A stretch of DNA of 64,000 bases from Bacteroidales bacterium (GCA_017395245.1 JAFPVR010000107.1:9575-73574); one strand, 5' to 3'; positions 863 to 60,521 are shown, counted from the stretch's first letter. The notes: a model not told the origin generated them from the letters alone. Made by a program: numbers and translations.

Positions 863-883
863 TGTTCACTGTTCACTGTTCAC
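863..883. repeat. Heptamer tandem array, TGTTCAC x3
   Basis: Three exact 7-nt units lie just 3' of the serC stop. They are imperfectly complementary (12/15) to 823-837, GTGAAAGGTGAGCAG. Confidence 0.8.
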
Positions 884-890
884 TTAAATA

Positions 891-2009
891 TTATTTGTTC
901 GCTTTTTCGAAATCCTGCATGCAGGCGACGAGGGCCTCAACGTCTTCGATGGTGCAGGCGTTGTAGAGGCTGGCGCGGAAGCCGCCGACGGAACGGTGGC
1001 CCTTGATGCCGATCATGCCGCGCTCCTTGGCGAAGGCCATGAAAGCATCCTGCTTGTCTTCGTAACCGGGGGCCATCACCCAGCAGTGGTTCATGATGGA
1101 ACGGTCAGCCTTGTCGGCGACGGTGCCCACGAACATGCTGTTGCGGTCGATTTCCTCGTACAGCAGGTTGGATTTCTTCATGTTGATCTTGTTCATCTCC
1201 TCGACGCCGCCGATGGTGTTCTTCAGCCAGGTGAGAGTTTCGTGCATCACGAAGATGGGGAGCACGGGCGGGGTGTTGAACATGGAGATGTTCTTGGCTT
1301 CCTCGGCCGCGTGGGTGCGGTAGTCAACCATGGTGGGCAGCGGGTTCATGTAGGCGCGGTCGCCAATCTGACCCAGGATGTCCTTGCGCACGATGACGAA
1401 GGTGACGCCGGCAGGGCCGACGTTCTTCTGGGCACCGCCGTAGATGAGGCCGTATTTGGTCACATCGACGGGACGGCTCATGATGTCGGAGCTCATGTCG
1501 GCGACGAGCATCACGTTGTTGCACTCCTCGGCGGTGAAGTCCTTGCGGATTTCGGTGCCGTAGATGGTGTTGTTGGTGGTGATGTGGAAGTAGTCGGCGT
1601 CAGCGGGGACGGTCCAGCCCTTCGGGATGTAGTTGTAGGTCTTGTCCTCGGAAGAAGCGACGATTTCGGTAGTACCGAAGTTCTTGGCTTCCTTGGCGGC
1701 CTTCTTGGCCCAGACGCCGGTCTGGAGGTAGGCGGCCTTGGTCTTCATCAGGTTGGCGGGCACCATGAAGAACTGGGTGCTGGCGCCGCCGCCGAGGAAG
1801 AGCACTTCGTAGGTGTCGGGGATGTTGAGGATGTCGCGCCAGAGTTGGCGGGTTTCGGCCATCACTCTCTCCCAACCCGGGGTGCGGTGTGAGATCTCCA
1901 TCAGGCCGATGCCGGTGTTGTCAAAGTTGCGGATGGCGTTGATTGTGGATTCAACAGCCTCTTTCGGGAGGACGCAAGGTCCTGCGTTAAAATTGTGTAC
2001 TTCTTTCAT
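891..2009 (-). CDS. serC: Phosphoserine aminotransferase
   Basis: [20 protein letters not shown]... is a full-length SerC-like sequence. The track start at 2015 is a TTG, and the ATG at 2009 is more likely. Confidence 0.9.
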
Positions 2010-2064
2010 AACCAATTATATACGTTATTTTTTTAAGGTGATAAAATGAAATTCAAATTTGCGG

Positions 2065-2072
2065 CAAAGGTA
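2065..2072 (-). promoter_or_regulatory. Bacteroidota -7 box TACCTTTG (TAnnTTTG)
   Basis: A consensus -7 motif lies about 55 nt upstream of the serC start. Confidence 0.5.
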
Positions 2073-2234
2073 CATAAATTACTAATACAAAACGGATAAA
2101 TATATACTTAAATAAAAATACAATGTATGCTTTTTTTTATGGATTCTGGAGTACGAAATCGATGGCCGTTTGGATAGTTTTTTTGGGGGTGAAATTTTTT
2201 TTTGAAAGGGTGGTGCGGCAATTGAAAAAAAGTG

Positions 2235-2242
2235 TATTTTTA
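2235..2242 (+). promoter_or_regulatory. Near-consensus -7 box TATTTTTA upstream of the tRNA
   Basis: It lies 16 nt upstream of the tRNA-Ser 5' end. The context AAAAAGTGTATTTTTACGGC closely resembles the promoter at 12781. Confidence 0.4.
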
Positions 2243-2257
2243 CGGCCTCAAATTCAA

Positions 2258-2345
2258 GGAGAGATGGCCGAGTGGTCGAAGGCGCGCGCCTGGAGAGCGC
2301 GTAAGCGCCAAAAGCGCTTCATGGGTTCGAATCCCATTCTCTCCG
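2258..2345 (+). tRNA. tRNA-Ser (anticodon GGA), class II with long variable arm
   Basis: Hand-folded cloverleaf: acceptor GGAGAGA/TCTCTCC, anticodon stem CGCGC/GCGCG with loop CTGGAGA, variable arm GCGCCAAAAGCGC, T-arm ATGGG-TTCGAAT-CCCAT, discriminator G. No CCA is encoded. Confidence 0.9.
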
Positions 2346-2413
2346 CTTGATGGTAAAAGCTTGAAAATCAATAAAGTAATAATAATTTAATTTCAACAAA
2401 TCAAAAATCAATT

Positions 2414-3241: not shown

Positions 3242-3299
3242 GGGTTAATCCTTACCCGTATTTCATATTATATATACAATAATTATAAATCGTTGTATA

Positions 3300-4253: not shown

Positions 4254-4254
4254 C

Positions 4255-8390: not shown

Positions 8391-8418
8391 GTAGAGACGC
8401 AAAATATTGCGTCTCTAC
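8391..8418. repeat. GTAGAGACGC palindrome family, copy 1
   Basis: GTAGAGACGCAAAATATTGCGTCTCTAC, 22 nt after the yicC stop. Confidence 0.85.
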
Positions 8419-8428: not shown

Positions 8429-8638
8429 AACCAATCACAATTCACCAATCACCAATCACCAATCACAATTCACCAATCACCAATCACAATTCACCAATCA
8501 CCAATCACAATTCACCAATCACCAATCACAATTCACCAATCACAATTCACCAATCACAATTCACCAATCACAATTCACCAATCACCAATCACAATTCACC
8601 AATCACAATTCACCAATCACCAATCACAATTCACTATA
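8429..8638. repeat. Heptamer tandem array, 30 units of CACCAAT (A) / CACAATT (B)
   Basis: Unit order, parsed by hand: a'BAAABAABAABAABABABABAABABAABc'. It ends 2 nt before the der ATG. Confidence 0.95.
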
Positions 8639-8640: not shown

Positions 8641-9945
8641 ATGGGAAACATATTGTCATTAATAGGTCGGCCTAACGTGGGGAAGTCCACGTTTTTCAAC
8701 CGCCTCATACAGGCGCGGGAGGCCATTGTGGACGCCACCGCCGGCGTGACGCGAGACCGGCACTACGGCAAGTCCGACTGGAACGGTTACGATTTTTCGG
8801 TGATTGACACCGGCGGTTACGTGGTGGGCTCCGACGACATTTTCGAGTCGGAAATCCGCAAGCAGGCGGCGTTGGCCATTGAGGAGTCGGATGTCATCGT
8901 TTTTATGGTCGATGGCCGCGAGGGATTGACCCCGTTGGATGAGGAAATTGCCGACATTTTGCGCAAGAGCAAGAAGCCTTACTACCTGGCGGTGAACAAG
9001 ATTGACAGTCCGAGTAACTACTTCGATTACACGGAGTTCTATGCGTTAGGTATCGGGGAAATCTATCCCATTTCGGCGGTTTCAGGCAGCGGCACGGGCG
9101 AATTGTTGGACGAGGTGGTGAAGCACTTTTCCAAAGACAAGGACGACCTCCCCGACGATCTGCCGCGTATTGCCATCGTGGGCAAACCGAATGTGGGTAA
9201 GTCTTCGATTATCAATGCGTTCCTCGGAGAGGACAGGCATATTGTGACCCCGTTGGCCGGCACCACCCGCGACACCATTTTCACCCGCTACAAGAGCTTC
9301 GGTTTCGATTTCTACCTCATTGACACCGCCGGACTGCGCAAGAAGAGCAAGGTGGAGGAGAGTTTGGAGTTTTACTCCGTGATGCGGGCCGTACGCTCCA
9401 TCGAAAATTCCGATGTCTGCATTGTGATGGCGGATGCTTCGCAAGGTTTTGACTCCCAGGATCTTAATATCTTCGGATTGTGCGCCCGAAACCACAAGGG
9501 CATAGTGTTGGTGATGAACAAGTGGGATTTGGTGGAGAAAGACACGCACACGCACAAGAATTTCGAAGATGCGTTGAAGAAGCGGATTGCGCCGTTCACC
9601 GACGTGCCGATTATCTTTACGTCTGTAACCGAAAAACAGCGCATTTACAAGGTATTGGAGACGGCCATCCAGGTCTATCAGAACCGCCAGCGCCGGATTT
9701 CCACCTCGGAGCTGAACAATACGCTGCTGCCCATTATTGAGGAGACGCCACCGCCGATGAATAAAGACAAGGTGATCCGTATCAAATATGTTACACAATT
9801 GCCGATTGCTTACCCGACCTTCGCGTTCTTCTGCAACCTGCCGCAGTATGTCGTGGATTCGTACAAACGCTTCTTGGAGAACCAGATCCGCAAGAACTGG
9901 GATTTCTCCGGTGTGCCGATTGAAATTTACTTCCGAAAGAAATAG
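8641..9945 (+). CDS. der: Ribosome-associated GTPase Der/EngA
   Basis: Two G domains ([24 protein letters not shown]) plus a KH-like C-terminus. Confidence 0.9.
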
Positions 9946-9948
9946 CGA

Positions 9949-11259
9949 ATGAAAAAACTATTCATAGAAACGTACGGCTGCCAGATGAATTTCGCGGACA
10001 GCGAGGTGGTTGCCTCCATTTTGAAGGATGACTACACGCTGACGAAAGAGATTTTAGAGGCCGATTTAATCCTCATAAACACCTGCTCCATCCGCGACAA
10101 GGCCGAACAACGCATCCACAAGCGTTTGAAGGAATTAGAGGCTTATAAGCGCAAAAAACGGACCATACAGGTCGGCTTGTTGGGTTGCATGGCCGAACGG
10201 ATGAAGGAGGAATTATTACAGACCGAGCCGGTCTTGGACTTCATTGCCGGTCCGGACGCGTATCGCTCTTTGCCGCAGCTGATTGCCGATTCGCAGCACG
10301 GGCATACTTCCTTCAACGTATTGCTCTCAAAGGAAGAGACTTACGACAACATTATGCCGGTGCGCTACGATGCCAACGGTGTGTCGGCGTTTGTTTCCAT
10401 TATGCGCGGTTGCAACAATTTCTGCTCCTACTGCGTGGTGCCTTACACGCGCGGTCGCGAGCGCAGTCGCAGCCCGAAAACCATCCTCAGCGAAATCGAG
10501 GATTTGTTGAAAGACAATTACAAGGAAGTCACGCTGTTGGGGCAGAATGTGAACTCCTATTACTGGAAAGAGGGCGACGAAGAGGTCTCCTTTGCGAAAC
10601 TGATGGCGATGGTGGCGGAAATGTCGCCGGAACTGCGCGTGCGGTTCGCCACATCGCATCCCAAAGACCTTTCCGACGAGTTGATTGATACGATTGCCCG
10701 CTACGACAATATCTGCAAGTGCATTCATCTGCCGGTACAATCGGGCAGTGACGAAATGCTGCAGAAGATGCGCCGCGTCTATACGCGGGAGAGCTATCTG
10801 GAACGGGTGCGGAAAATCAAGGAAGTGCTGCCGGATTGTGCTATCACGACAGATATTATCGTGGGATTTTGCGGCGAAACCCTTGACAATCACCAGGATA
10901 CATTGTCGATTATGCGTGAGGTCGGCTACGAGTACGCTTACATGTTCAAGTATTCCGAACGCGGCGGCACGTTAGCCTCCAAGCAGTATCCCGACGACAT
11001 TCCCGACGAGGAGAAAACCCGCCGTTTGGAGGAGGTCATCGCGCTGCAAGGAGAACTTTCCATGGCGAGCAACCGCCGCGACGTGGGCAAAACTTTCCGC
11101 GTTTTAGTTGAAGGTGCTTCCAAACGTTCCGACGACCAGCTCTTCGGCCGCAACAGCCAGAACAAAGTGATTATTTTCCCACGCGGCAACCACCAAGTTG
11201 GCGATTATGTGGATGTGACGGTGACGGAATGCACGCCGGCGACGTTATTAGGCAGTTAG
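9949..11259 (+). CDS. miaB: tRNA (N6-isopentenyl-A37) methylthiotransferase
   Basis: MKKLFIETYGCQMNFADSE..., radical-SAM motif CNNFCSYCVVP, TRAM-like C-terminus. Confidence 0.9.
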   Translation: MKKLFIETYGCQMNFADSEVVASILKDDYTLTKEILEADLILINTCSIRDKAEQRIHKRLKELEAYKRKKRTIQVGLLGCMAERMKEELLQTEPVLDFIAGPDAYRSLPQLIADSQHGHTSFNVLLSKEETYDNIMPVRYDANGVSAFVSIMRGCNNFCSYCVVPYTRGRERSRSPKTILSEIEDLLKDNYKEVTLLGQNVNSYYWKEGDEEVSFAKLMAMVAEMSPELRVRFATSHPKDLSDELIDTIARYDNICKCIHLPVQSGSDEMLQKMRRVYTRESYLERVRKIKEVLPDCAITTDIIVGFCGETLDNHQDTLSIMREVGYEYAYMFKYSERGGTLASKQYPDDIPDEEKTRRLEEVIALQGELSMASNRRDVGKTFRVLVEGASKRSDDQLFGRNSQNKVIIFPRGNHQVGDYVDVTVTECTPATLLGS

Positions 11260-11317
11260 TGGTTAGTGGTTAGTGGTTAGTGGTTAGTGGTTAGTGGTTA
11301 GCGGTTAGCGGTTATGG
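11255..11317. repeat. Heptamer tandem array GTTAGTG x6, GTTAGCG x2, GTTATGG x1
   Basis: Parsed by hand. The miaB stop codon TAG (11257-11259) is part of the first unit. Confidence 0.95.
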
Positions 11318-11368
11318 GGGGATAGTATGTCCGTTAAACCCGAAATATATTAAAACATTTTCCAAAAA

Positions 11369-11420
11369 GGGCTGAAAGCCCGACGTATGTCAGCCCAGGG
11401 TGAACGCAGTGAGCCCTGGG
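11369..11420 (+). repeat. GNA-triloop double-hairpin element, copy 1 (subfamily A)
   Basis: GGGCT-GAA-AGCCC, 11-nt spacer, CCCAGGG-tgaaCGCAGtgag-CCCTGGG. It ends 22 nt upstream of the rlmN ATG. Confidence 0.8.
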
Positions 11421-11442
11421 TCGAATAAACGATGAATGAACG

Positions 11443-24539: not shown

Positions 24540-24790
24540 TAGGAGCTTCGGCATTCTTGCCGAAAATTTTAGGAGATTCGGCATTCCTGCCGAAAGTCGT
24601 TAATGTCGTTCTGTGGCATTCCTGCCGCACCTCCTATTTTAATGTGACAGGAATGCTGCGGTCCCTATTTAATGCGGCAGGAATGTCGCGGCTCATGTTT
24701 TAATGCGGCAAGAATGCCGCGGCTCATGTTTTAATGCGGCAAGAATGCCGCGGTTCATGTTTTAATGCGGCAGGAATGTCGCGGCTCCTA
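24540..24790. repeat. REP array (8 hairpin cores GGCATTCYTGCC / GGCARGAATGYC) flanking the RAYT 3' side
   Basis: Two TAGGAG-oriented units, one doublet, then five units with a 31-nt period (TTTTAATGCGGCAAGAATGCCGCGGCTCATG). Confidence 0.9.
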
Positions 24791-25454
24791 AAGTGTATTC
24801 GTCAGTATTTAAGTACTGTGGATTGTTTTGAATATAGGTTATGTAGTGCAGGAAGTTGTTGAAATTTCTCACCATGCGGTCGAATATACCCGATTGCCAA
24901 ATAGTGCCCTTTTGACCCAGAACCTTGTTGATAGAATGTGCGGAAAAGCCCTTCACTCTGGAAAATACGGTCGTGACATTATGTCCGTTCATGGGTGTGA
25001 GTAATACGTGAACATGGTTGGGCATAATGACATAGCAATGGAGGATATAGCGTTTCCCGTCATAGAATAGAAGAGCATCCTCTACAATTTTCCTTATATC
25101 GGGTCTTTTAAGAATGCAACTACCGTATCCCGCATCTATCCATCTGTCACACTTTACGAGAATGTTATGATCGTATTCTTCTTGTACCTCTTGGCTCCAG
25201 GGGTAAGGGTGTGCTTTCATCCATTCCTGTTTGTATGCTTTCAGTTCCTCAATTTTCGACTGTGGGATTGAATCTGCCAAACGGAATGTGACAAATTGCG
25301 TTTTACCGTCCTGATGCCAATGCGGCAGATTTGTCCCCCAAATGTTGACATATTTGTTTTTTTCGAGGAATTGATAGGGTCTTTGGCATTCTTGCCGAAG
25401 CCCGTTAGCGTCATTTTGCGACAAGAATGCCGCGGTTTTAAGTTTTGTCTTCAT
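24762..25454 (-). mobile_element. REP-associated tyrosine transposase (RAYT; IS200/IS605-type Y1 HUH transposase)
   Basis: ...NLPHWHQDGKTQFVTFRLADS..., HUH motif MPNHVHVLL, C-terminal Tyr motif LHYITYIQNNP. It is flanked by REP arrays. Both ends of the ORF overlap REPs, so the exact start is uncertain. Confidence 0.8.
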
Positions 25455-25542: not shown

Positions 25543-25669
25543 TAGGAGTTTCGGCATTCTTGCCGAAAATTTTAGGAGTTTCGGCATTCTTGCCGAAAAT
25601 TTTAAGAGTTTCGGCATTCCTGCCGAAGGTTGTTAATAACGTTCTGCGGCAGGAATGCCGCAGCTCCTA
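25543..25669. repeat. REP array (3 direct 30-nt units plus 1 inverted, forming a REPIN-like doublet) on the RAYT 5' side
   Basis: TAGGAGTTTCGGCATTCTTGCCGAAAATTT x2, then TAAGAGTTTCGGCATTCCTGCCGAAGG...CTGCGGCAGGAATGCCGCAGCTCCTA. Confidence 0.9.
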
Positions 25670-25717: not shown

Positions 25718-25745
25718 GTAGAGACGCGGCGCGCCGCGTCTCTAC
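25718..25745. repeat. GTAGAGACGC palindrome family, copy 2
   Basis: GTAGAGACGCGGCGCGCCGCGTCTCTAC, 4 nt after the MFS stop. Confidence 0.85.
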
Positions 25746-31598: not shown

Positions 31599-31626
31599 GA
31601 CTTAAGACTTAAGACTTGAGACTTGA
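31599..31626. repeat. Heptamer array GACTTAA x2, GACTTGA x2
   Basis: Parsed by hand; lies between the pyrE stop and the atpH promoter. Confidence 0.85.
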
Positions 31627-32308: not shown

Positions 32309-32343
32309 GTTTACAGTTTACGTTTTACAGTTTGCAGTTAACG
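32309..32343. repeat. Heptamer array GTTTACA/GTTTACG/TTTTACA/GTTTGCA/GTTAACG
   Basis: Five phased 7-nt units in the divergent pyrE / giant-gene spacer. Confidence 0.8.
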
Positions 32344-44400: not shown

Positions 44401-44682
44401 TATCAGCTTTACCTGCCCAACGCTATCACGCCCGCTCGTGGCGACGGCCTCAACGACTACTTCTACATTCCGGAGCTCGCGAAAGGTTCAATCAACCTGT
44501 TCGAAATCAGCGTTTTCAACCGCTGGGGTGAGATGGTGTTCTACTCCACCGACAAGAATTTCCAGTGGAACGGCGAATACAAGGGGAAGATTTACCACCA
44601 GACGGTCTATACCTACGTTATCGAATATACGGACTATGCAGGTCGGCCGTTCCGCGTGACGGGAACGATAACGGTGTTGTAA
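32455..44682 (+). CDS. Giant (4075 aa) T9SS type-B sorting-domain surface protein, adhesin-like
   Basis: Signal peptide MRRAVAILMLWMLCCGWISAQ. The body carries Ig/SprB-like repeats, three P-domain-like modules and about 35-40 Cys-containing ~52-aa repeats. The C-terminus LYLPNAITPARGDGLNDYFYI...FNRWGEMVFYS...WNG matches the gliding-motility-associated C-terminal domain. Confidence 0.9.
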   Translation: MRRAVAILMLWMLCCGWISAQQQHFPYNVDVQILPGHCYDDSHLIFTLTDDNGNIIQIDPQTHNAVNLGQYPLYNVQYHYQSVSGGLGVHYDYDNDIMLSAGTYCVGVVAEIPAAGGSYTQVDTTFCNVQVTTSYDHLEATALSNVAYDNDGDVERYGFRASFHCADVGRIQLRIVQGSFPYTVTILDEQQDTVRHTVFYYRANSGNNPYAASYRDYYTFDSLPIGTYSIYVSDSCGYTVPLAFNIPDYEPARYLALVKSDLSGCLDETVVPFVVERRYPSGIGAIWCNYNYSYMDSILMYRFINPGGDTTEWKNINTPGYAATWVSVYDTFPSYCNIFYDTIKMQLHDLCHDTLMTYSFRFLPQFGFSDSIVEVYQQDTIIHDTCATHLPNGVSTQTYKIWGSTWTGAGKTIYGSAYSAYPVPFRYYRCPLSYNIWSLPDSTLLGHDQSDEFTGLGTWETYFADTSLHVYVSVTDAQGCTLADKDTVLVYQTEPVDELLFWYECHNDKDDDGKDHCCADRYLWIQEHGVDADTFRRNMTLRLIESPLYNQFNFTAIRQDGVWTVTPDDPNNHSTYLEFSYEDGWRATVRDSVCLPPGRYTFEVSTDCGVDTITYSWAGYYYDTLDFVSAPQYEIQQLCGDMVFTQISTGLVNYMYFIDPEVSNDIPEETIPNYACSSYSPDGGSDYRDSHGRNVLVFSIPGTYSITTYAYNWYCSNCADWCSEYHYHYDTITVAFSYVDFDMAAALLCDASATTGIVTAQAINGNSPYTYTLYSQWGATGDVIATNTTGFFDNVPMTVGQHFSVQVTDSCQISFSVNLTATLLTHGSLVWEQNANTGLHCAGDTVQLTAMNFPPPATYQWSGPNGFSSTSQTVDVVLPDYSENGWYTVEILNSDICGMSVFDSILVSMAPDPQVTITGDTTVCPGGSLILQASSSIGESSYFWSTGDTTSTITATQDQATEYTVTATSPVGCTGTASKTVEIQAPNPISTHVYLCSDSTTTLTARAADAYAWSTGATTSFITVSAAGIYRVTATPSDGCSVVDTFVVTTVKVNGISNIDIPDICAGDTAAITVGHAASCNLTIITHETILALNDTVFLPDGADCLPYGCSYQSSLHFAGYEDTAKVNSVDDIRYVRLNIEHSYAGDIYINITCPNGQKADIIRWGDYQQFPSDAQTYCASDISNSSKGWQSDVEGSYNASQGTDFGVPYNHSDSGFPCDATRPNNAPGTGWNYCWSNNTSEGYTYAEGTGSLIYRECNAVFNYDATPTYITWPIPMAVYPKSFDSSNVAAGTQFYHPDESFDSLVGCPLNGDWYIEVLDGINVDNGYIFGWELALTPDIQMIEYVDVVSTTVDGPWVTATSDSSFLFTPPANLPNDTTISYTFHCHSPFGCGYDTVVSVTFHPRQDIVIDTTACNSLVWNGVTYTTDTTFTDSLTNIHGCDSIITVNIHVITTPSVDIIGSHYFCPGDTVMLTAVAGGQAQYLWSNGETDSTITVTEAGVYTVTAYFPGGCSAESDEFHLFEVENPILGGFLNDMVAGDTQTVVIGTMAGDNLQYQLPQSTLTYSTVTFLPDGEPCGDPPSCSYKATMSFSGFPETAVIHSADEIRYIRLKVEHSWIKDLYINLTCPSGKSADILKKFNGNSSSPCLDSISPSHRGWQDNYFASTNTSIYFGYAFWKSDNGNRCDPNRPDNQPGIGWNYCWSNNTTEGYQYAPGAGSLIYEPENVHSHTVDYLTKYVVDSSDAAAGTNFYHPDVPFDSLVGCPVNGLWTVEVIDGIQGDNGYIFECELSVAEQLCSTHYAHVSEIGFEGLWAENGSADSSFVITPPADLANDTVVGYTFTLTDENGCVFDTTIYIHIYAHKHTDLYDTVPTDELPYVWNGPTITHAGCSDTLLFTTHGADSVVTMHLSVIYPFDTTICTNVFPLSWHGHTFNGVDTLTISHPLACGCDSMEVLTVAESPVYQDTSYVSVCESNLPYMWRGQSLNSTGVYADTLFTVAGCDSILVLNLRVEDVYEIPLQESICQGDTFLFFGQMLTQSGVYTDTLQTSSGCDSVIILNLTVNPTYNIPFTVTICQGDAFFFFGQLLTEEGVYADTMQTVAGCDSVITLTLVVNPTYNIPVSGAICQGDTFLFFDQQLTEEGEYTKTLQTVKGCDSVITLTLTVNPTYSIPVSEAICAGDTFDFHGESLTEAGVYLDTLQTISGCDSIIVLNLSVNPVYYITLSDTICAGDTFYFFSLALTSAGVYTDTLQSISGCDSIITLNLVANPVYNIPLSAEICAGDTFLFFGQSLMTTGLYTDTLQTVNGCDSVISLHLTVNEATSETIVVNIVENDLPYEINQTSYDSAGTYIQHLTNAADCDSLLTIHLFVANNTITHQQAMICQNMLPAVWQGHVWQGAGVIIDTLEAANGADSIVVLTLTVGLPTESELYDTILQNNLPYVLNDSSYFATGVYVQQRINVAGCDSTITFHLTVLLNQRTELDSTVCDSLLPVVWNGITFTDAGVDSVLLEASNGVDSTVVMTVNVKPSSDSTLIVSVIENSLPYVLNDFEYGDPGTYTQSLDNAIGCDSTLTLVLTVLYNVRTEVDSVVCDSLLPITWNGVEFTGAGADSVLLTASTQVDSLVVMTLTVNYPTTGLVTDTVVQNNLPYLLNGTEYDTTGIYLQHLANVSGCDSTLTLDLTVLYNVKTYLDSTVCDSLLPVQWNGITFTEAGMDTVIYQAANGADSMVVMTLNVNASSYNTIIVNEIENNLPYTHNGIDYDSSGIYIQHLENALGCDSTLIIELTVLYNVRAEVDSVVCDSLLPITWNGVEFSGAGTDSVTILAASGVDSTVVMTVTIAYPTEGTFADTVVENSLPYQLNGFSYDSAGVYTQHLTNVDGCDSTLTFGLTVLYNVASEADSAVCPNALPIVWNGKTFTAAGVQSAVLTAANGVDSTVTMTVTTLPSPTAHISGPSVLCADSYTTLTADSAMSYLWSNGMTTQSINVHATGSYSVTVTNELGCTASETYVVGNMVTVDPLTAINLPSHLCAGNSYTMTAGYHSTDNFVIGAIEETHSVAETVFLPDGIYCSPYGCSYQSPLTFTDFAAGSTVTNVNDIRYVRLNMEHSYAGDIYINITCPNGQKADIMKYAGTGTSSCTGSIPAGSIGWQSGNNASQSTFFGMAYDYSTTSCNSSVSANAPGVGWNYCWSNNTDQGYSYAPGTGSLIYRSANSHYHPYAYGTNSVSIFDSSNVAAGTQFYHPDQSFSSLIGCPLNGSWYIEVVDGYSIDNGYLFGWELALASTFATSNNTEVVAVTVEGPWATMTDTTTFVISPPDTLQHDTLAAYTVHFYDENGCGYDTVVFLNVYAQSHIAFDTTVCNSFVWAGTTYTQSQIITWNGVNAHGCDSTVAINLSVYPNPAVSITGQPVACVDDTANLVAACADTTALLVWSTGDTAQTITVTTAGTYTVTATNVGGCTSESTVTVAFSSPSQSTTDTTVCDSFLWNGTLYTQTGTYKDTLTNAAGCDSIATLNLTVKYSYLTHDTLQLLQSQLPYHFVPSDTTFAYGSPAEFQFSYTLPAQNGCDSVILEKVYIYMNYSQSFDTTVCASAVPLTWHGHTFTATATVTDSLQTVHGSDSVLTYTVTVDVISANIGNVTHIACYGDNTGAATATVTGGISPLTYQWTNGAGASVSSTTQISNRPAGDYTFTVTDAAGCSATASVTLNTLHGQMLSGTISGPQTFCFGDTVGTISGTAATGDGCVYQWQISADGTSWTPLQGTNNTQNYTFQTPVTNSFHLRRAWISTDCGTLYSDTLDISVWPVSSDTIYDDICVGNPYNEHGFNISETETVGLGTLTSWIHYTSVHGCDSTVTLILDIHEPRETDISAEVCEGTGYYENGFAIPASETVGEDSLSRVLNLQTVDGCDSVVRLAITVIDTALRIVSPTADFCEDMSAELFVVTNMTDYEWSTGEQTPNITVTVPGVYKVTASEGGCSVTARYVIEPCVYQLYLPNAITPARGDGLNDYFYIPELAKGSINLFEISVFNRWGEMVFYSTDKNFQWNGEYKGKIYHQTVYTYVIEYTDYAGRPFRVTGTITVL
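35707..36466 (+). other. P-domain-like module 1 (proprotein-convertase P/Homo-B-like, with a long insert)
   Basis: TVFLPDG...VRLNIEHSYAGDIYINITCPNGQKADI...GWNYCWSNNT...CPLNGDWYIEVLDGINVDNGYIFGWELAL. Confidence 0.6.
37123..37830 (+). other. P-domain-like module 2
   Basis: VTFLPDG...IRLKVEHSWIKDLYINLTCPSGKSADI...GWNYCWSNNT...CPVNGLWTVEVIDGIQGDNGYIFECELSV. Confidence 0.6.
38050..41273 (+). repeat. 21 consecutive ~50-55-aa Cys repeats (in-frame ~156-165-nt coding repeats)
   Basis: Each unit follows C-x2-3-(LP/GD)...W/F..G...G.Y.DTL....GCDS.(4-5)L.L.V. Units 4-9 (38494-39405) are near-identical. Units 10-21 (39405-41273) alternate between two subtypes. Confidence 0.85.
41590..42288 (+). other. 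P-domain-like module 3
   Basis: TVFLPDG...VRLNMEHSYAGDIYINITCPNGQKADI...GWNYCWSNNT...CPLNGSWYIEVVDGYSIDNGYLFGWELAL. It is protein-identical to module 1 over stretches, but with many synonymous DNA differences. Confidence 0.6.
44394..44679 (+). other. T9SS type-B C-terminal sorting domain (within the giant CDS)
   Basis: CVYQLYLPNAITPARGDGLNDYFYIPEL...ISVFNRWGEMVFYSTDKNFQWNGEYKGK...YTYVIEY. Confidence 0.8.
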
Positions 44683-44718: not shown

Positions 44719-44746
44719 GTAGAAACGCAAAATTTTGCGTCTCTAC
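44719..44746. repeat. GTAGAGACGC palindrome family, copy 3 (left arm GTAGAAACGC)
   Basis: GTAGAAACGCAAAATTTTGCGTCTCTAC sits between the convergent giant gene and ispD and overlaps the ispD stop by 4 nt. A degenerate partial copy (...CACGTCTCTAC) lies at about 44678-44705. Confidence 0.8.
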
Positions 44747-45453: not shown

Positions 45454-45480
45454 CGTATTATTATCGTCATTCGTTCCAAT

Positions 45481-45536
45481 CCCAGGGTTGCGGCTTCGCC
45501 TTACCCTGGGCTACCGAGCTTTTGCCCCTGCGGGGC
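45481..45536 (-). repeat. GNA-triloop double-hairpin element, copy 2 (subfamily A)
   Basis: Sense strand: GCCCC-GCA-GGGGC, 12-nt spacer, CCCAGGGT-aagGCGAAGCcgca-ACCCTGGG. It ends 27 nt upstream of the ispD ATG. Confidence 0.8.
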
Positions 45537-45572
45537 TGCTCAAGGAATAATACTATATATAAAAACTGCCCA

Positions 45573-45620
45573 GTGTTCAAGTTTCAAGTTTCAAGTCCAA
45601 AGTCTTAAGTCTTAAGTCTA
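45573..45620. repeat. Heptamer array (GTGTTCA, AGTTTCA x2, AGTCCAA, AGTCTTA x2, AGTCTAT)
   Basis: Seven phased units that abut the yitT stop codon. Confidence 0.85.
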
Positions 45621-46608: not shown

Positions 46609-46678
46609 AAAAATCCCCGCAGATTACGCAGACTAACGCAGACCTTATTTTCTGCGCAAATCTGCGAGATCTGCGGGA
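46609..46678 (-). terminator. Modular three-segment terminator hairpin built from CGCAGA/TCTGCG units
   Basis: CCCGCAGA-tta-CGCAGA-ctaa-CGCAGA, 8-nt loop, TCTGCG-caaa-TCTGCG-aga-TCTGCGGG. On the minus strand it is followed by ATTTTTTC. It lies after the macB permease stop. Confidence 0.6.
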
Positions 46679-46714
46679 GAATTTATACGTGCAGATACGC
46701 GCGATACGCGGAGA

Positions 46715-47935
46715 TCACTCGTACCTTAACGCCGAAATAGGATCCATATTCGCTGCCTTCTTCGCGGGATACCAGCCGAAGAAGATGCCGGTGAGGGCGC
46801 AGACGAGGAATGACCCCACAATAGCCATTTGGCTCACTACATACGGCATGTGCATCAGCTTGGAGGCCACATACGCGATAATCAGTCCTAATATGATGCC
46901 GATGATGCCGCCAATCAGACTCAGAATCACACTTTCGCTCAAGAACTGCAGCATGATGTCGCGGTTGTGCGCTCCGATAGCCATGCGAAGACCAATCTCC
47001 TTAGTACGCTCGGTCACTGTTACATACATGATGTTCATAATGCCGATGCCGCCCACCACCAACGAGATGGAAGCGATGGCGGCTAACAGTGTGGTCATAA
47101 GGCCGGTGACAGAACTGATGGTGGAGACCAGCTCTTCCTGCGTGCGGATGTCGAAGTCATCGCTCATGCCGCTTTTGATGCCGTGGTTGCTGCGCAAGAT
47201 GTAGGTGATTTCCGTGGCGGCCAGCTCGGATTCCTCTTCCGAGGTGGCGGAGGCAAACATCATGTTGAAGTAGTTGATGCCTAGAAAACGTTTCTGGATG
47301 GTGGTGTAGGGCGCAAATACGATGTCGTCTTGGTCTTCGCCCATGCCGTTCTGTCCCTTAGAGGCTAAAACGCCGATGACGGTCATCGGGATGGAGCCGA
47401 ACCGAATGGACTTGCCTAAAGGGCTCTCGCCGTTGGTAAAGAGCTCATCTACAACGGTCTGTCCGATAACGCACACTTTGTTGTAACGTTTCACGTCTTC
47501 GTCGGTGAACATCACCCCTTCCGCCAGCTCGTATTTGCGGATGTCGAGATAGGCGGCCGATACACCGTTTACGGAGCAGCTGTGGTTGTTGTTGCCGTAG
47601 ATCAGCTGCTTGCTGCTACTGACCATCGGGGAGACAGCGGCCACGTAGCGGGTTTTCTCCTCAAGTGCTTGCAAGTCCTTGTTGTCCAACGATTTGGACG
47701 ATGACATACCCATATCCACGCCGCCTCTTTGCTGACGGGCGGGCATGATCATGATCATATTGGAGCCCATGGAAGAGAGCTCCGATTTGACACTCTGGGT
47801 GGAGGCCTGCCCAATGCTGACCATGGCGATAACGGATGCGATACCAATAACGATGCCTAACATGGTCAGCGCAGTGCGCATTTTGTTGCGGAACAGCGAG
47901 CTGAAGGCGACTTTTACAAGATTTCCGATATTCAT
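46715..47935 (-). CDS. ABC transporter permease, MacB/FtsX type
   Basis: N-terminal TM segment, periplasmic domain and a C-terminal FtsX-like 3-TM region; 406 aa. Confidence 0.85.
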   Translation of the reverse strand: MNIGNLVKVAFSSLFRNKMRTALTMLGIVIGIASVIAMVSIGQASTQSVKSELSSMGSNMIMIMPARQQRGGVDMGMSSSKSLDNKDLQALEEKTRYVAAVSPMVSSSKQLIYGNNNHSCSVNGVSAAYLDIRKYELAEGVMFTDEDVKRYNKVCVIGQTVVDELFTNGESPLGKSIRFGSIPMTVIGVLASKGQNGMGEDQDDIVFAPYTTIQKRFLGINYFNMMFASATSEEESELAATEITYILRSNHGIKSGMSDDFDIRTQEELVSTISSVTGLMTTLLAAIASISLVVGGIGIMNIMYVTVTERTKEIGLRMAIGAHNRDIMLQFLSESVILSLIGGIIGIILGLIIAYVASKLMHMPYVVSQMAIVGSFLVCALTGIFFGWYPAKKAANMDPISALRYE

Positions 47936-50048: not shown

Positions 50049-50069
50049 ATAACCAATAACCAATAACCA
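50049..50069. repeat. Heptamer array ATAACCA x3
   Basis: It abuts the tolC-like stop codon. Confidence 0.85.
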
Positions 50070-51445: not shown

Positions 51446-51500
51446 CAAAGTCAAAGGTCAAGGTCAAAGGTCAAAGTCAAAGGTCAAAGTCAAAGGTCAA
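51446..51500. repeat. Tandem array AAAGTC/AAAGGTC (6/7-nt units, 13-nt super-unit)
   Basis: CAAAGTCAAAGGTCAAGGTCAAAGGTCAAAGTCAAAGGTCAAAGTCAAAGGTC. Confidence 0.85.
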
Positions 51501-51543
51501 AAAAACAGGCAACAAGTCCATTCTAATTCCCTGTTGCCTGTTT
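51499..51543 (-). terminator. Rho-independent terminator after cdaA
   Basis: On the minus strand: ACAGGCAAC-aggg...ctt-GTTGCCTGT followed by TTTTTTT. Confidence 0.7.
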
Positions 51544-51575
51544 CCTATTGCCTAATGCCTACTCCCTAATGCCTT
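51534..51575. repeat. Heptamer array TTGCCTG/TTTCCTA/TTGCCTA/ATGCCTA/CTCCCTA/ATGCCTT
   Basis: Six phased units. The last one contains the cdaA stop codon. The array overlaps one terminator arm. Confidence 0.75.
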
Positions 51576-53920: not shown

Positions 53921-53948
53921 GTAGAGACGCACGGCCGTGCGTCTCTAC
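53921..53948. repeat. GTAGAGACGC palindrome family, copy 4
   Basis: GTAGAGACGCACGGCCGTGCGTCTCTAC, a perfect 28-nt palindrome. Confidence 0.85.
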
Positions 53949-53954: not shown

Positions 53955-53989
53955 CCTATTGCCTCCTGCCTTTTGCCTATTGCCTAAAA
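53955..53989. repeat. Heptamer array CCTATTG/CCTCCTG/CCTTTTG/CCTATTG/CCTAAAA
   Basis: Five phased units immediately upstream of the ahcY -7 box. Confidence 0.8.
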
Positions 53990-53993: not shown

Positions 53994-54001
53994 TATCTTT
54001 G
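53994..54001 (+). promoter_or_regulatory. -7 box TATCTTTG
   Basis: It lies 39 nt upstream of the ahcY ATG at 54040. Confidence 0.55.
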
Positions 54002-55451: not shown

Positions 55452-55486
55452 TTTGGCTATTGGCTGTTAGCTATTGGCATTGGGGA
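55452..55486. repeat. Heptamer array TTTGGCT/ATTGGCT/GTTAGCT/ATTGGCA/TTGGGGA
   Basis: Five phased units starting 3 nt after the ahcY stop. The last unit runs into the terminator stem. Confidence 0.8.
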
Positions 55487-55511
55487 TACTCGAAAGTGTA
55501 TCCCTTTTTTT
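55483..55511 (+). terminator. Rho-independent terminator of ahcY
   Basis: GGGATAC-tcgaaagt-GTATCCC followed by TTTTTTT. Confidence 0.75.
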
Positions 55512-57520: not shown

Positions 57521-57528
57521 CAAAGATA
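57521..57528 (-). promoter_or_regulatory. -7 box TATCTTTG
   Basis: It lies 21 nt upstream of the gpsA ATG. Confidence 0.55.
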
Positions 57529-57541
57529 CACTATTTTTTGG

Positions 57542-57549
57542 TACTTTTG
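57542..57549 (+). promoter_or_regulatory. -7 box TACTTTTG (possible promoter of the 57703 gene)
   Basis: It is the only consensus box on the + strand in this divergent spacer. If used, it implies a ~150-nt leader that contains the heptamer array. Confidence 0.35.
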
Positions 57550-57593
57550 CTGTTTAATTTCGTTTGTTCTTCTACTTATTGATAATGAAGAGG

Positions 57594-57677
57594 TTAGACT
57601 TAAGACTTAAGACGTTAGACTTGAGACGTTAGACTTTGGACCTGAAACCTGAAACCTGAATCTTGAAACTTGAATCT
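57594..57677. repeat. Heptamer array of 12 phased units that drift in sequence
   Basis: TTAGACT TAAGACT TAAGACG TTAGACT TGAGACG TTAGACT TTGGACC TGAAACC TGAAACC TGAATCT TGAAACT TGAATCT. Confidence 0.9.
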
Positions 57678-57702
57678 TCGGAATATATAAACCCCAAGCA
57701 AT

Positions 57703-59016
57703 ATGAAAAATATACGACTTTTATGGCTATTTCTCCTGGCATTTGCGTTTGCGGGTGTTCATGCGCAGGTGGTGCTGGATTTTGACGAGACCTATGCGCA
57801 GGAACTGCTGAAACCAGGTACCCCCGCACCGGATTTCCAGTTGCAGACACCCGATGGCAAAACGTTGAAATTCAGCGAGTTTTCCAAAGGAAAATACGCC
57901 GTCATCGACTTTTGGGCTTCCTGGTGCCCCGACTGCCGCAAAGACCTCCCCGAAATCATCCGCCTCTACAACAAGTTCCACGAAAAAGGCGTAGAGTTCC
58001 TCGGGGTCTCTTTCGACACGGACAAGGAGAAATGGACGGATTTCATCGCCAAATCGGGTGTTCCCTACCCGCAGGTAAGCGAGCTGAAGCGGATGAACCA
58101 GTCGGAGGTGGCCAAAGCCTACGGTGTGCGTTGGATTCCCTCTATTTATCTTGTTGGACCCGACGGCAAAGTGCTGGTTAGCACGGTGTTGTCGTATAAG
58201 ATTGAGAAAAAGCTGTACGATATTTTCATAGAGCCAACCCCTGTTACGCTTTCCGGAGGTTGTGACACGATCACCATCGACGGGAGCAAGGGAAAATTGT
58301 GGGCTGAGCTCTACAAGCCGCAATTGAATCCTGGTCAGCGTTGCGATTTGGTGATTATGTGCCACGGCTTGAATTGCGACCACGATTTCGAATTAATGCA
58401 GCGAATTGCCATTCAGTTAAGGTCGGCAGGTTTCGCTACGCTGATGTTCGACTTTAATGGACACGGCAAGAGTGATGGCAAGTTTGTGGATATGACGATT
58501 CCGAACGAAATCGAAGATTTGGAACAGGTGCTGGCGTATGCACAAGACTTACGGTTTGTGGATGATATCGCTTTAGTGGGTCACTCGCAGGGTGCCATTG
58601 TGGCGGCGATGGTCGCGAGCAAGCATCCCGAGGACATCAAGGCGGTGACGCTCTTGGCTCCGTCCTCTTCGGTGCGCGATGATATTGCCCGAGGCAACCT
58701 CTTCGGCATTGAGTTCAACCCCCTTGATCCGCCTGACAGCCTCGTGCTGGCCAACGGCATCGCTCTTGGTCGCCGCTATCTGAAAACCGCGCTATACCTT
58801 CCCATCTTCGAGGCGGCAGCCAGCTATCATGGCAGTGCCTGCATCATCCACGGCAACGGCGACCGCCTTGTGCCCTTCACCTGCGGCGAGCGTTTCCACC
58901 AGCTTTGGAACGGAAGCGAGTACTACGAACTCGAATATTACGACCACAACTTCACCAACTGTATCTACCGGCCGGTGGAGATCACGACGGAGTATCTGAA
59001 ACAGGTGATGAAGTAG
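57703..59016 (+). CDS. Secreted fusion protein: TlpA-like thioredoxin domain plus alpha/beta hydrolase domain
   Basis: Signal peptide; WASWCPDCRKDLPE (CxxC) ...GVRWIPSIYLVGPDGKV; the C-terminal half has VIMCHGLNC...FDFNGHGKSDG...LVGHSQGA (a GxSxG nucleophile elbow). Confidence 0.7.
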   Translation: MKNIRLLWLFLLAFAFAGVHAQVVLDFDETYAQELLKPGTPAPDFQLQTPDGKTLKFSEFSKGKYAVIDFWASWCPDCRKDLPEIIRLYNKFHEKGVEFLGVSFDTDKEKWTDFIAKSGVPYPQVSELKRMNQSEVAKAYGVRWIPSIYLVGPDGKVLVSTVLSYKIEKKLYDIFIEPTPVTLSGGCDTITIDGSKGKLWAELYKPQLNPGQRCDLVIMCHGLNCDHDFELMQRIAIQLRSAGFATLMFDFNGHGKSDGKFVDMTIPNEIEDLEQVLAYAQDLRFVDDIALVGHSQGAIVAAMVASKHPEDIKAVTLLAPSSSVRDDIARGNLFGIEFNPLDPPDSLVLANGIALGRRYLKTALYLPIFEAAASYHGSACIIHGNGDRLVPFTCGERFHQLWNGSEYYELEYYDHNFTNCIYRPVEITTEYLKQVMK

Positions 59017-59020
59017 TAAC

Positions 59021-59055
59021 TTTAAGTCTCAAGTCTCAAGTCTTAAGTCTCAATC
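59021..59055. repeat. Heptamer array TTTAAGT/CTCAAGT x2/CTTAAGT/CTCAATC
   Basis: Five phased units starting 5 nt after the stop codon. Confidence 0.85.
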
Positions 59056-59059
59056 AGAA

Positions 59060-59101
59060 ACAACAAACGGACGACCCCTTTCGGAATCGTCCGTTTGTTG
59101 T
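59060..59101. terminator. Long hairpin between convergent genes (bidirectional terminator candidate)
   Basis: ACAACAAACGGACGA-cccctttcggaa-TCGTCCGTTTGTTGT, a 15-bp stem. Confidence 0.55.
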
Positions 59102-59121
59102 ATATGCTATAAATGCTTATT

Positions 59122-60318
59122 TTACAGCAGATTGTACGTGTCGGTAGCGATCACCAGCTCCTCGTTGGTGGTCACGACCACGAGCTTCGTGGTGGAGTCG
59201 GGGGTGGAGATGATGCCGTCCTCGCCGCAGTATTTCTCGTTGGCTTCGTGGTCCATCTTCGCGCCGAGCCATTCCAGGTTCTCGCAAATCTTCTCGCGTT
59301 GGAACCAGGCGTTCTCGCCGATGCCGCCCGTAAAGAGAATCACGTCCACACCGCCCATAGCCGCTGCGTACGCGCCGATGTACTTGCGCACACGGTAGGC
59401 GAACATGTTGAAGGCGTCGGTGCTGCGCTCGTCGCCAGCGTCGCGGCCGGCGCGGATGTCGCGCATATCGACGCTCTTGCCGGAGATGCCCAGCAGACCG
59501 CTCTTCTTGTTGATGAGGGTGTTCATCGCTTTGGTGTCAAGGTTTTCCATGTCCATGATGTAGAGCAGTGCGCCGGCGTCGAGGTCGCCCACGCGGGTGC
59601 CCATCACGAGGCCTTCCACAGGGGTGAAGCCCATGGAGGTGTCGATGCTCTTGCCGTTCTTGATGGCGCAGATAGAGGCACCGTTGCCGAGGTGGCAGCT
59701 CACGATTTTCGCGCTCTCGTAAGGGATGCCGGCAATTTCAGCGGCCTTCGGACCCACGTATTTGTGGCTCGTGCCGTGGAAACCGTAGCGACGGATTTTC
59801 TTCTCGGTGTAATACTCGTACGGAAGAGCATAGAGGAACGCCTCCGACGGCATGGTCTGGTGGAAGGAGGTGTCGAACACGCCGACGTGCTTCACGTTCG
59901 GAAGCAGTTTCTTCATCGCGTCGATGCCGGTGAGGCTGGCGGGGTTGTGCAGGGGAGCCAGGGCACAGAGCTTCGCGATTTCCTCGCGCTCTTTGTCGCC
60001 GATGACACAGCTCTCTTTGAAGTATTCGCCGCCGTGTGCCACACGGTGACCCACCGCGCCAATCTCGTCCAACGACTTGATAACGCCATGCTCGGGATCG
60101 GTCAACATGTTCAGTACCAGCTTGATACCTTCCTCATGTGTGGGAATGGGGGTCTGCACGTAGCATTTCTCCTTGCCGACGGGCTTATGGGTGAACTCAC
60201 CCATCTCCAAGCCGACACGCTCAACCAAACCTTTAGCCAAAAGTTCGGGTTGCGGCTCCATCTCCAACAATTGGTATTTGATGGAGGAACTTCCGCAGTT
60301 AAGGACTAATATTTTCAT
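59122..60318 (-). CDS. ackA: Acetate kinase
   Basis: MKILVLNCGSSSIKYQL..., 398 aa. Confidence 0.95.
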   Translation of the reverse strand: MKILVLNCGSSSIKYQLLEMEPQPELLAKGLVERVGLEMGEFTHKPVGKEKCYVQTPIPTHEEGIKLVLNMLTDPEHGVIKSLDEIGAVGHRVAHGGEYFKESCVIGDKEREEIAKLCALAPLHNPASLTGIDAMKKLLPNVKHVGVFDTSFHQTMPSEAFLYALPYEYYTEKKIRRYGFHGTSHKYVGPKAAEIAGIPYESAKIVSCHLGNGASICAIKNGKSIDTSMGFTPVEGLVMGTRVGDLDAGALLYIMDMENLDTKAMNTLINKKSGLLGISGKSVDMRDIRAGRDAGDERSTDAFNMFAYRVRKYIGAYAAAMGGVDVILFTGGIGENAWFQREKICENLEWLGAKMDHEANEKYCGEDGIISTPDSTTKLVVVTTNEELVIATDTYNLL

Positions 60319-60357
60319 ATTCTTTGTTTTTTGTGACTTTATATGTTTATTGTAGGG

Positions 60358-60521
60358 GTGATCTGTGATTAGTGATTGGTGATTAGTGATTGGTGATTAG
60401 TGATTGGTGATTAGTGATTGGTGATTAGTGATTGGTGATTAGTGATTGGTGATTAGTGATTGGTGATTAATATCATAATTGTTCATTATAAATTGCCCAT
60501 TGTTAATTGTACATTGTACAT
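60358..60521. repeat. Heptamer array of about 23 units: GTGATTA/GTGATTG alternation, then a degenerate phased tail
   Basis: GTGATCT, then (GTGATTA GTGATTG) x7, then GTGATTA ATATCAT AATTGTT CATTATA AATTGCC CATTGTT AATTGTA CATTGTA. On the minus (sense) strand it reads as the CACCAAT/CACTAAT family, the same as 8429-8638. Confidence 0.9.

Follow-up and report, generated by a model that had tools for sequence, protein, structure and literature searches.

The 64,000-nucleotide stretch of a Bacteroidales bacterium analysed here (GCA_017395245.1 JAFPVR010000107.1:9575-73574, GC 52%; hereafter the window) carries tandem arrays of heptanucleotides in about half of its sizeable intergenic spacers, and these arrays are, in our judgement, probably slippage-driven microsatellites of the kind described as long simple sequence repeats (LSSRs) or short tandemly repeated repetitive sequences (STRRs), tolerated only in dispensable non-coding DNA and for the most part devoid of a dedicated function. 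An earlier note, written from the sequence alone, had listed 14 arrays with units parsed by hand; these units are correct, and Tandem Repeats Finder (TRF) returns a period of 7, or its multiples 14, 21 or 35, at all 14 sites. With window genes called from open reading frames (ORFs), from searches against families and from the genes called on related contigs, the self-match fraction of intergenic DNA amounts to 0.346, 0.335, 0.324 and 0.306 at lags 7, 14, 21 and 28, other lags giving about 0.26-0.28, and coding DNA displays a period-3 signal as its sole one, with no lag-7 excess. When a strict block is defined as a sliding 21-nt window with at least 18 matches at a given lag, ten blocks are found at lag 7 and one at lag 13, with no block at lags 4-6 or 8-12 or in any of 50 shuffles. 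All ten lag-7 blocks are intergenic, as the earlier note had claimed for the arrays in general, and the comparison of intergenic with coding sequence against shuffled controls that it had proposed thus yields, in the window, an excess confined to intergenic DNA. Its further statement that arrays occupy most spacers was too strong: a significant lag-7 block is present in 13-14 of the 27 spacers of at least 50 nt, and arrays cover 876 of about 4,700 intergenic nucleotides. Two properties by which LSSRs are recognized, namely head-to-tail copies of a 1-11 nt unit beyond chance length and the restriction to non-coding DNA of units that are not a multiple of 3, are both found in the window, every lag-7 block being intergenic.

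The units fall into three families of similar sequence (rotation and strand allowed), which are given first, followed by the arrays themselves:

Family F1, AAGTCTT/AAGACTT-like: 31599, 45600, 57596 and 59024.
Family F2, TGGTTAT / GTTAGTG / GTGATTR / ATTGGTG-like: 50049, 11255, 60365 and 8429.
Family F3, TGCCTAT/TGGCTAT-like: 51526, 53955 and 55453.
863..883: (TGTTCAC)x3 (TRF), 7 nt downstream of the serC stop (minus strand); one arm of an imperfect hairpin whose partner is a degenerate inverted copy at about 823-845 (RNA fold of the minus strand, 796-893: -21.6 kcal/mol, z = -3.7).
8429..8638: 30 units of CACCAAT/CACAATT (TRF, units parsed), family F2 with the C-rich strand on plus; yicC-der spacer, between the GTAGAGACG...CGTCTCTAC hairpin (8391-8418) and the der ATG (8641); 210 nt with no stop in any sense frame, the single strand predicted structure-free.
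11255..11317: nine units, (GTTAGTG)x6, (GTTAGCG)x2 and GTTATGG (TRF), family F2; miaB-rlmN spacer.
31599..31626: (GACTTAA)x2 then (GACTTGA)x2, family F1; separates the pyrE stop from the promoter of atpH, whose Bacteroidetes-type -7 box (TATATTTG, minus strand) lies 10 nt downstream of the array.
32309..32343: five degenerate units of GTTTACA type (TRF); divergent spacer between pyrE and a giant SprB-like gene, 11 nt upstream of the pyrE -7 box (TATCTTTG, minus strand).
45573..45620: AGTTTCA units then AGTCTTA units (TRF), family F1; abuts the yitT stop and is followed in the sense direction by an AT-rich stretch, a dispersed two-hairpin element and ispD.
50049..50069: (ATAACCA)x3, on the sense strand (TGGTTAT)x3, family F2; abuts the tolC stop, TAATGGT being a degenerate first unit.
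51446..51500: CAAAGTC/AAAGGT, upstream of tolC; true period 13 (6+7) with 95% matches (TRF).
51534..51575: degenerate TTGCCTA type (TRF), family F3; overlaps the cdaA stop.
53955..53989: CCTATTG type (TRF), family F3; between the GTAGAGACG...CGTCTCTAC hairpin (53921-53948) and the ahcY -7 box (TATCTTTG at 53994).
55452..55486: ATTGGCT type, F3-like; convergent spacer, lying between the stop of ahcY and a terminator-like hairpin (55482-55505).
57594..57677: 12 units, TTAGACT/TAAGACT (F1) then TGAAACC/TGAATCT; divergent spacer between gpsA and an AhpC-hydrolase gene.
59021..59055: CTCAAGT/CTTAAGT, family F1; convergent spacer, between the stop of the gene at 57703-59016 and a bidirectional terminator-like hairpin (59060-59101).
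60358..60521: (GTGATTA GTGATTG)x7.5 with perfect period 14 (F2), then degenerate units of ATTGTAC type (TRF); downstream of a CCG-domain gene and upstream of ackA (59122-60318), whose minus-strand orientation makes the spacer of the 59021 array convergent and places the present array ahead of ackA.

The earlier note had also held that the 7-nt register is kept even where units drift, which fails at 51446-51500, where the period is 13.

The behaviour of the arrays among closely related strains is what points to slippage. An identical Der GTPase (8641-9945 in the window) is encoded on 19 contigs from independent ruminant metagenome assemblies, and the same arrays with the same flanks recur in independent assemblies from several studies and assemblers. 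Among assemblies with identical Der, the array upstream of der comprises 30, 12, 11, 6 and 6 units (one scaffold has an internal N gap); the array after miaB has 9 versus 5-6 units, a further strain (L004) carrying (ATGCTGA)x5 instead; the one after tolC has 3 versus 2; and the one after yitT keeps its 48 nt in four other assemblies and is one unit shorter (41 nt) in two. Upstream of ackA, where several contigs end inside the array, the long (GTGATTA GTGATTG)n corresponds in two strains (L148 and L151) to only four degenerate proto-units, and a third (L152) has an extra 14-nt duplication, so that growth of an array in place from a proto-array is directly observed. In these short-read assemblies, with identical flanking proteins, the differences in length are whole multiples of 7 (-126, -133, -168, -28 and -7 nt), and the polymorphism by whole units that is a further property of LSSRs is found here too. 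The length differences are concentrated in pure arrays: the degenerate ones (57594, 59021, 55452, 51534, 53955 and 32309) are identical wherever they were seen, which is in three other assemblies for 32309, three for 57594, seven for 59021 and one (L091) for 51534; the 51446..51500 array is likewise identical in L091. Whole arrays also come and go, the 31599 array being missing from a group of contigs with identical PyrE (L137-type) and an additional (CATCTTC)x4 array being present in L139. Lengths above about 100-150 nt, a range that concerns two long arrays, are uncertain in short-read metagenome assemblies. Arrays of 21-84 nt fit well within the read length and are reproduced exactly across assemblies, and the differences among short arrays are therefore not assembly noise. 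Instability that rises with purity and length and is ended by point mutation is classic microsatellite behaviour, and the slippage-prone character that the earlier note had ascribed to these spacers is borne out by such in-register polymorphism.

Beyond the strain level, the arrays turn over rapidly. The relatives identified by Der reach 98% identity and are all uncultured; the nearest are rumen and gut metagenome-assembled genomes (MAGs; RUG11592 and RUG083 at 98%, one more at 96%), followed by MAGs from yak, buffalo, horse and deer at 80-90%. The window itself comes from an uncultured Bacteroidales of the rumen or gut. In sister species, the spacers downstream of serC, between yicC and der, and between miaB and rlmN also hold heptamer arrays, the units of which differ: CACCAAT in the window versus TGGTTAT and others, on the opposite strand, in the yicC-der spacer of L007-L009; TAATTGA units in L008; inverted arrays downstream of serC; and GTTAGTG in the window versus GTTAGTA/GTTAGCA in L007 at miaB-rlmN, this last difference at an orthologous array pointing to concerted evolution. 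The der-miaB junction illustrates this turnover, since it measures 3-4 nt in the window, in several conspecific strains and in L009, 147 nt of AAGTCTA/AAGTTTA units in L007, and 135-235 nt of heptamers together with a conserved hairpin element in L003, L004 and L008. At this same junction, L003 and L004, whose Der is identical, switch at the 3' end of der (window 9900-10000) to an allele like that of L008, with another synonymous pattern, the der-miaB insertion and a MiaB of 95% identity, a switch which suggests that homologous recombination may have taken place between species.

Scored as z over 80 Bacteroidota loci, the intergenic lag-7 excess is 13 in the window and 4.5-4.8 in the sister species L007 and L008; over its whole locus L009 scores about 0, though its yicC-der spacer has a clear array, and L018 scores 2.4. 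Most of the 80 loci score about 0, as do most relatives at 80-90% Der identity. Values of 3.8-4.7 reappear in three unrelated loci (L066, L071 from Aequorivita, and L079). The trait is thus sporadic, restricted to particular lineages and evolutionarily young, in agreement with what is published on LSSRs (PMC4679880, PMC4692102). A side observation in one relative (L014, 87% Der identity) is that its yicC-der spacer contains a period-8 array, (TTAAGAAA)x4 at 9967-10000, with no heptamers. Among viral contigs, (AAGTCTT)x3 gave 4 matches and (TGGTTAT)x3 gave 40, very diverse and including giant-virus bins, which is uninformative as to origin.

The placement of the arrays fits sequences that are tolerated rather than maintained for one purpose. 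They occupy tandem, divergent and convergent spacers, in both orientations, and their neighbours are housekeeping genes (serC, der, miaB, rlmN, atpH, pyrE, ispD, tolC, cdaA, ahcY, gpsA and ackA). Promoters were located through TAnnTTTG, the -7 box of Bacteroidetes promoters. Some arrays lie just upstream of a core promoter with an A/T tract between (atpH, pyrE, ahcY), others separate a stop codon from a terminator-like hairpin (downstream of ahcY and of the gene at 57703-59016), and still others stand between cistrons, reaching the next start codon (der, tolC, ispD, ackA). In the window, arrays are absent from ORFs and from the interval that separates the -33 and -7 promoter elements; a sigma-70 promoter and terminator scan, which is poorly suited to Bacteroidetes, returned counts not above those of shuffles. 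The sequence bears out the contacts with stop and start codons that the earlier note had described: stop codons stand in or beside the first unit for miaB (a TAG inside the first GTTAGTG), tolC and cdaA, and for miaB in L004 and L008 as well; the yitT stop abuts its array, that of ahcY lies 2 nt ahead of one, and the der ATG follows 2 nt past another. As the arrays adjoin stops, hairpins and promoters, they seem to fill any dispensable sequence and to end at functional elements.

Arrays of a single orientation are predicted to be structure-free (minimum free energy 0) and are not palindromic, the long ones having three-letter alphabets. Inverted pairs of arrays fold, with z = -7.7 and -4.5 in L066 and -5.6 in L007, and more weakly downstream of serC in the window. 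An Rfam scan returned no family over the arrays, its only matches being a tRNA and an Acido-Lenti-1-like element beside two arrays. Arrays of family F2 run both with and against the direction of transcription inside one replichore (GC skew is positive over nearly the whole window), and the arrays obey no strand constraint; a role at the RNA level or tied to one replication strand was considered and set aside, as the mixed orientation of F2 within a single replichore argues against it and no orientation rule was found. The idea of a 21-nt superperiod corresponding to two helical turns was likewise dropped, since the higher-order period varies by array (14, 21, 35 or 13).

We infer slippage as the molecular step from the fact that the indels are in register, and the following course may be envisaged. 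Two to four similar 7-mers would first form a short proto-array in dispensable non-coding DNA, where slipped-strand mispairing during replication, possibly helped by unequal recombination, would gain or lose whole units or blocks of 14 or 21 nt. MutS-type mismatch repair does not handle loops as large as 7 nt; pure arrays would presumably escape repair in this way, grow and stay polymorphic, until point mutation decays them into degenerate arrays that would then be fixed. Because 7 is not a multiple of 3, an array arising in coding sequence would put the reading frame out of register and be selected against, which would account for the confinement to spacers. Most arrays probably have no dedicated function and would evolve as neutral sequence, and some may have been incidentally co-opted as hairpin arms, unstructured leaders or spacing.

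STRRs have been known in cyanobacteria since about 1990, and heptanucleotide repeats of this type are already on record for cyanobacteria, Xanthomonas, Beggiatoaceae and a few Bacteroidetes, a list to which rumen Bacteroidales can be added as a host; we found no report of such arrays for rumen Bacteroidales in the literature searched. The remark of the earlier note that no described function could be named therefore needs qualification: the phenomenon itself has been described under several names (heptanucleotide LSSRs, STRRs, TAACTGA repeats, GGGAATC repeats; PMC4679880, PMC4692102), in those systems too without an established function. Among the LSSRs of Mrazek et al. (2007), as summarised in PMC4679880 and PMC4692102, heptamers are the most abundant class, with polymerase slippage as the proposed cause and a suggested tie between heptamer slippage and the DNA polymerase footprint. 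Tandem 7-nt units enriched in the intergenic DNA of scattered lineages, with units that are not a multiple of 3 kept away from genes, are common to that account and to the window, whereas the 2007 top list names Burkholderia, cyanobacteria, actinobacteria and Xanthomonas. For the cyanobacterial STRRs, three heptanucleotides are cited from Calothrix PCC 7601 (PMC4692102). The hallmark of STRRs, a few families each present at many unlinked intergenic loci with variable copy number, is found in the window with three to four loci per family in 64 kb, and dispersed families characterize TAACTGA and GGGAATC repeats as well; the phylum and the unit sequences of STRRs differ, the window units being AT-rich (about 36% GC) and in many cases degenerate. 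The window arrays thus behave like STRRs and are not STRRs in the strict sense, because both host and units differ.

Closer to the Bacteroidales are the TAACTGA repeats (MacGregor 2015), reported from Beggiatoaceae, cyanobacteria and five Bacteroidetes, heptamer arrays in the latter phylum including those of Flexibacter, Paludibacter, Gramella and Aequorivita, with further heptamers sharing the TAACTGA spacers (PMC4679880). Like the arrays of the window, they are intergenic and sporadically distributed, Bacteroidetes included, and some end a few nucleotides before a start codon; an Aequorivita locus (L071) is among those flagged by our own lag-7 scoring. They differ in that the window holds many families and follows no forward-orientation rule, only the der array abutting a start codon. 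No TAACTGA array was found in the window when (TAACTGA)x2 was searched with up to 2 mismatches per 14 nt, and units one mismatch away occur in relatives (TAACTGC in L004 and L007, TAACTGT in L018). The few window units that lie within one mismatch of TAACTGA or of STRR units we take to be a lead only, about one being expected by chance on our estimate when 16 units are compared in every rotation and on either strand. Rehm et al. (2015, PMC4692102) describe GGGAATC repeats in Xanthomonas and GGGGA(C/T)T repeats in Nostoc, whose G-rich units adopt G-quadruplex structures. The occasional inverted pairs able to form hairpins and the absence of a link to virulence genes are common ground with them; window units, in contrast, cannot form G-quadruplexes and the long arrays are predicted structure-free. 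CRISPR arrays, which consist of 23-50 nt repeats with unique spacers and usually accompany cas genes, are unlike these contiguous 7-mers without spacers.

Several observations weigh against slippage without function as a complete account. The choice of units is not random: among 16 window arrays, four pairs share a unit, rotation and strand allowed, where 0.2-0.3 would be expected, and 14 pairs lie within one mismatch where 3-4 would be, so that the claim that units differ between loci stands only in part, three families recurring at loci that are not linked (three null models, one of them using 7-mers from non-array spacers, give P<0.001). Sister species carry F1, F2 and F3 at other loci, something that local slippage does not predict. 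Arrays persist in the yicC-der, miaB-rlmN and serC-downstream spacers across species despite the change of sequence, and selection may be keeping an array at these sites. Slippage accounts neither for the period of 7 nor for the vocabulary of units, and short-read metagenome assemblies, from which the copy numbers are taken, are liable to collapse repeats. The recurrence of families suggests that expansion may be sequence-dependent, that arrays may spread, or that a binding site may be under selection.

The last of these would make the arrays binding tracts for a lineage-specific nucleic-acid-binding protein that reads a 7-nt vocabulary, one protein per heptad, within a global regulatory or architectural network; the reader might be an oligonucleotide-binding (OB) fold or a Csp/S1-like protein acting on RNA or single-stranded DNA, or a factor binding duplex DNA. 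We regard this as possible, albeit unlikely. A binding model has been proposed for the TAACTGA repeats and for Nostoc heptamers (PMC4679880; bioRxiv 10.1101/2022.06.06.494920), and families that recur far beyond chance and are shared by sister species while individual arrays turn over would follow from it. The same could be said of the arrays standing 4-11 nt and an A/T tract upstream of the -7 boxes of atpH, pyrE and ahcY, and of the one that stops 2 nt short of the der ATG. Such tracts would, however, hardly be expected to show the mixed orientation of F2, to lie on the opposite strand in the yicC-der spacer of sister species, to occupy every type of spacer down to convergent 3' regions, to be so often degenerate, or to vary between strains from 2 to at least 30 copies beside essential housekeeping genes, and no candidate protein was identified. 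The phased protein-binding tracts suggested in the earlier note would be compatible with the recurrent families F1-F3; the superperiod is not consistent among arrays, and the orientation is mixed as well. A broader conjecture, which we advance tentatively and consider rather unlikely, is that a lineage-specific factor writes or reads heptads, either a component of the replisome or of the repair machinery, altered so as to slip in steps of 7 nt, or a heptad-binding protein; it would install AAGTCTT-like, TGGTTAT/GTGATTR-like and TGCCTAT-like units in any free spacer, including what had been 3-nt operon junctions.

Some arrays have repetitive elements as neighbours. An element of about 100 nt with two hairpins (TTTTTAAAAACATCTTCCTTGAGCAGCCCC...GGGGC...AGCCCAGGG...CCCTGGGAATAAA) lies in the window at 11340-11425 (plus sense) and 45470-45560 (minus sense), and elsewhere at 4330-4475 in L003, 1884-2044 in L004 and 11330-11437 in L008. 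On the strand opposite to the genes it matches the Rfam family Acido-Lenti-1 (RF01687) at 11368-11420 with 41.1 bits (gathering threshold 37), the second match (45481-45537) reaching only 24 bits. Acido-Lenti-1 is described from Acidobacteria and Lentisphaerae and is not known from Bacteroidales. A 28-nt palindrome, GTAGAGACG(N10)CGTCTCTAC, is exact at 8391-8418, 25718-25745, 53921-53948 and 61384-61411, with a variant at 44719-44746; these four to five intergenic copies, none being expected by chance, keep the stem and vary in the loop, and resemble a repetitive extragenic palindrome (REP)-like element or a shared terminator. Two copies stand 6-10 nt ahead of heptamer arrays, and a related copy takes the place of the heptamer array in the pyrE-atpH spacer of the L137-type strains. 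In L066, a distant Bacteroidales MAG (63% Der identity), one hairpin element lies on both sides of der (1000-1085 and 2405-2495); its stems are inverted arrays, (AGAATTT)n / (AAATTCT)n, around a common loop, GGGAGCGGG(G/A)AAATC, with DNA fold z-scores of -7.7 and -4.5.

It might then be asked whether the arrays belong, as modules, to small intergenic elements of a mobile or dispersed kind, akin to miniature inverted-repeat transposable elements (MITEs), BOX or REP sequences, spread by transposition or recombination, an explanation we hold to be distinctly unlikely. Comparison with REPs, bacterial interspersed mosaic elements (BIMEs) and MITEs shows three arrays attached to the two-hairpin element, at three operon junctions and in the constant order stop, heptamer array, AT-rich stretch, element, ATG, and inverted array pairs that form hairpins in L066, in L007 and downstream of serC in the window. 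Two arrays directly follow the GTAGAGACG...CGTCTCTAC palindromes, the L066 hairpins that flank der share their loop as well as heptamer stems, and strains of one species differ in having or lacking the der-miaB insertion. Yet only 3-5 of the 14 arrays lie beside such elements, the copies of the two-hairpin element bear different units (GTTAGTG, AGTCTTA, GTTTCAG), and neither terminal inverted repeats, target-site duplications nor a transposase were seen at the arrays, whose growth in place from proto-arrays is on the contrary observed. A modular intergenic element of this sort, a MITE with a minisatellite, is described for Porphyromonas gingivalis (PMC4596501). The likeness lies in the three window arrays included in a recurring composite with the two-hairpin element, and the difference in the fact that most window arrays stand alone and display no hallmarks of transposition.

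Copy number might also tune or switch the expression of neighbouring genes through promoter spacing or the 5' untranslated region, in the manner of contingency loci. In Haemophilus influenzae, the 7-bp repeats upstream of hmw1A and hmw2A are reportedly promoter heptads with demonstrated function. For Vibrio cholerae, TTTTGAT repeats in the ctxAB promoter are a further example (bioRxiv 10.1101/2021.05.14.444153). Both resemble the window arrays as 7-nt tandem units upstream of genes with strain-variable copy number, and both differ as single virulence loci with known regulators or phase variation, the window arrays being numerous, next to housekeeping genes and found in 3' and convergent positions too. 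The in-register polymorphism of copy number is real, and the two longest and most variable arrays stand directly upstream of der and ackA. The neighbours are nevertheless core housekeeping genes and not surface, restriction-modification or virulence genes, and many arrays are found past the 3' ends of genes or in convergent spacers; in the window none falls within an ORF or separates a -33 from a -7 element. Classical contingency spacers, as proposed in the earlier note, are accordingly improbable.

The same note had envisaged frame-independent translational insulators, in which a stop triplet within a 7-nt unit closes three frames within 21 nt. In favour of this, 13 of 14 arrays close all frames on at least one strand, compared with about 12% of non-array intergenic stretches of equal length (random single strand), and several gene stops fall inside the first array unit. 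All frames are closed, though, on the sense strand in 8 of 13 arrays and on the antisense strand in 7 of 13, which is no preference; the yicC-der array, the largest of all, and the tolC array lack any stop on the sense strand, and three-frame closure is an arithmetic by-product of any 7-nt unit with a stop triplet, so that we hold this role to be highly improbable. Lastly, contigs often end within long arrays, and the der array of one scaffold contains an N gap, but an assembly artefact, by which the earlier note would have been refuted, can be practically discounted, for identical arrays with their flanks are present across many independent assemblies and those of 21-84 nt are exact.

Slippage-driven microsatellites remain the reading we prefer, and the clade offers a good natural experiment on them, with dense arrays (about half of the spacers), several unit families and in-register variation between strains. 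Arrays are present in sister species at 96-98% Der identity and missing from most relatives at 80-90%, and hundreds of rumen metagenomes cover the clade, which makes tractable a comparative search for a replication, repair or binding factor as well as estimates of slippage at the population level. Should a heptad factor exist, gene content and population genetics of the clade could identify it and answer why the period is seven. On a practical level, arrays break short-read assemblies and can move predicted stop codons, which affects the quality of MAGs and their annotation.

Other repeats of the window deserve a brief mention. Tandem 31-nt and 30-nt repeats, each with a GCGGCAGGAATGCCGC-type hairpin, are located at 24668-24787 and 25543-25627 (also 25637-25669); mutually inverted, they flank an ORF at 24762-25454 (230 aa, minus strand, no Pfam family), a layout that resembles REP/BIME-type clusters around a gene. 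Between yitT and a macB-like permease gene, positions 46616-46715 contain repeats with a 9-10-nt period (CGCAGANNN / ATACGCGCAG) in the form of a 27-nt inverted repeat plus a tandem run, and a similar ATACGAG/ATACGCG run is found upstream of ackA in L148 and L151. Finally, the gene at 32455-44682 encodes a giant SprB/CHU_C protein of 4,075 aa, of the type IX secretion system (T9SS) type, with internal tandem repeats of 153 nt (51 aa) at 38575-39058; its length is 4,067, 4,068 or 4,075 aa depending on the strain, and other contigs with identical PyrE encode in its place proteins of 1,115-1,120 aa or of 761 aa.

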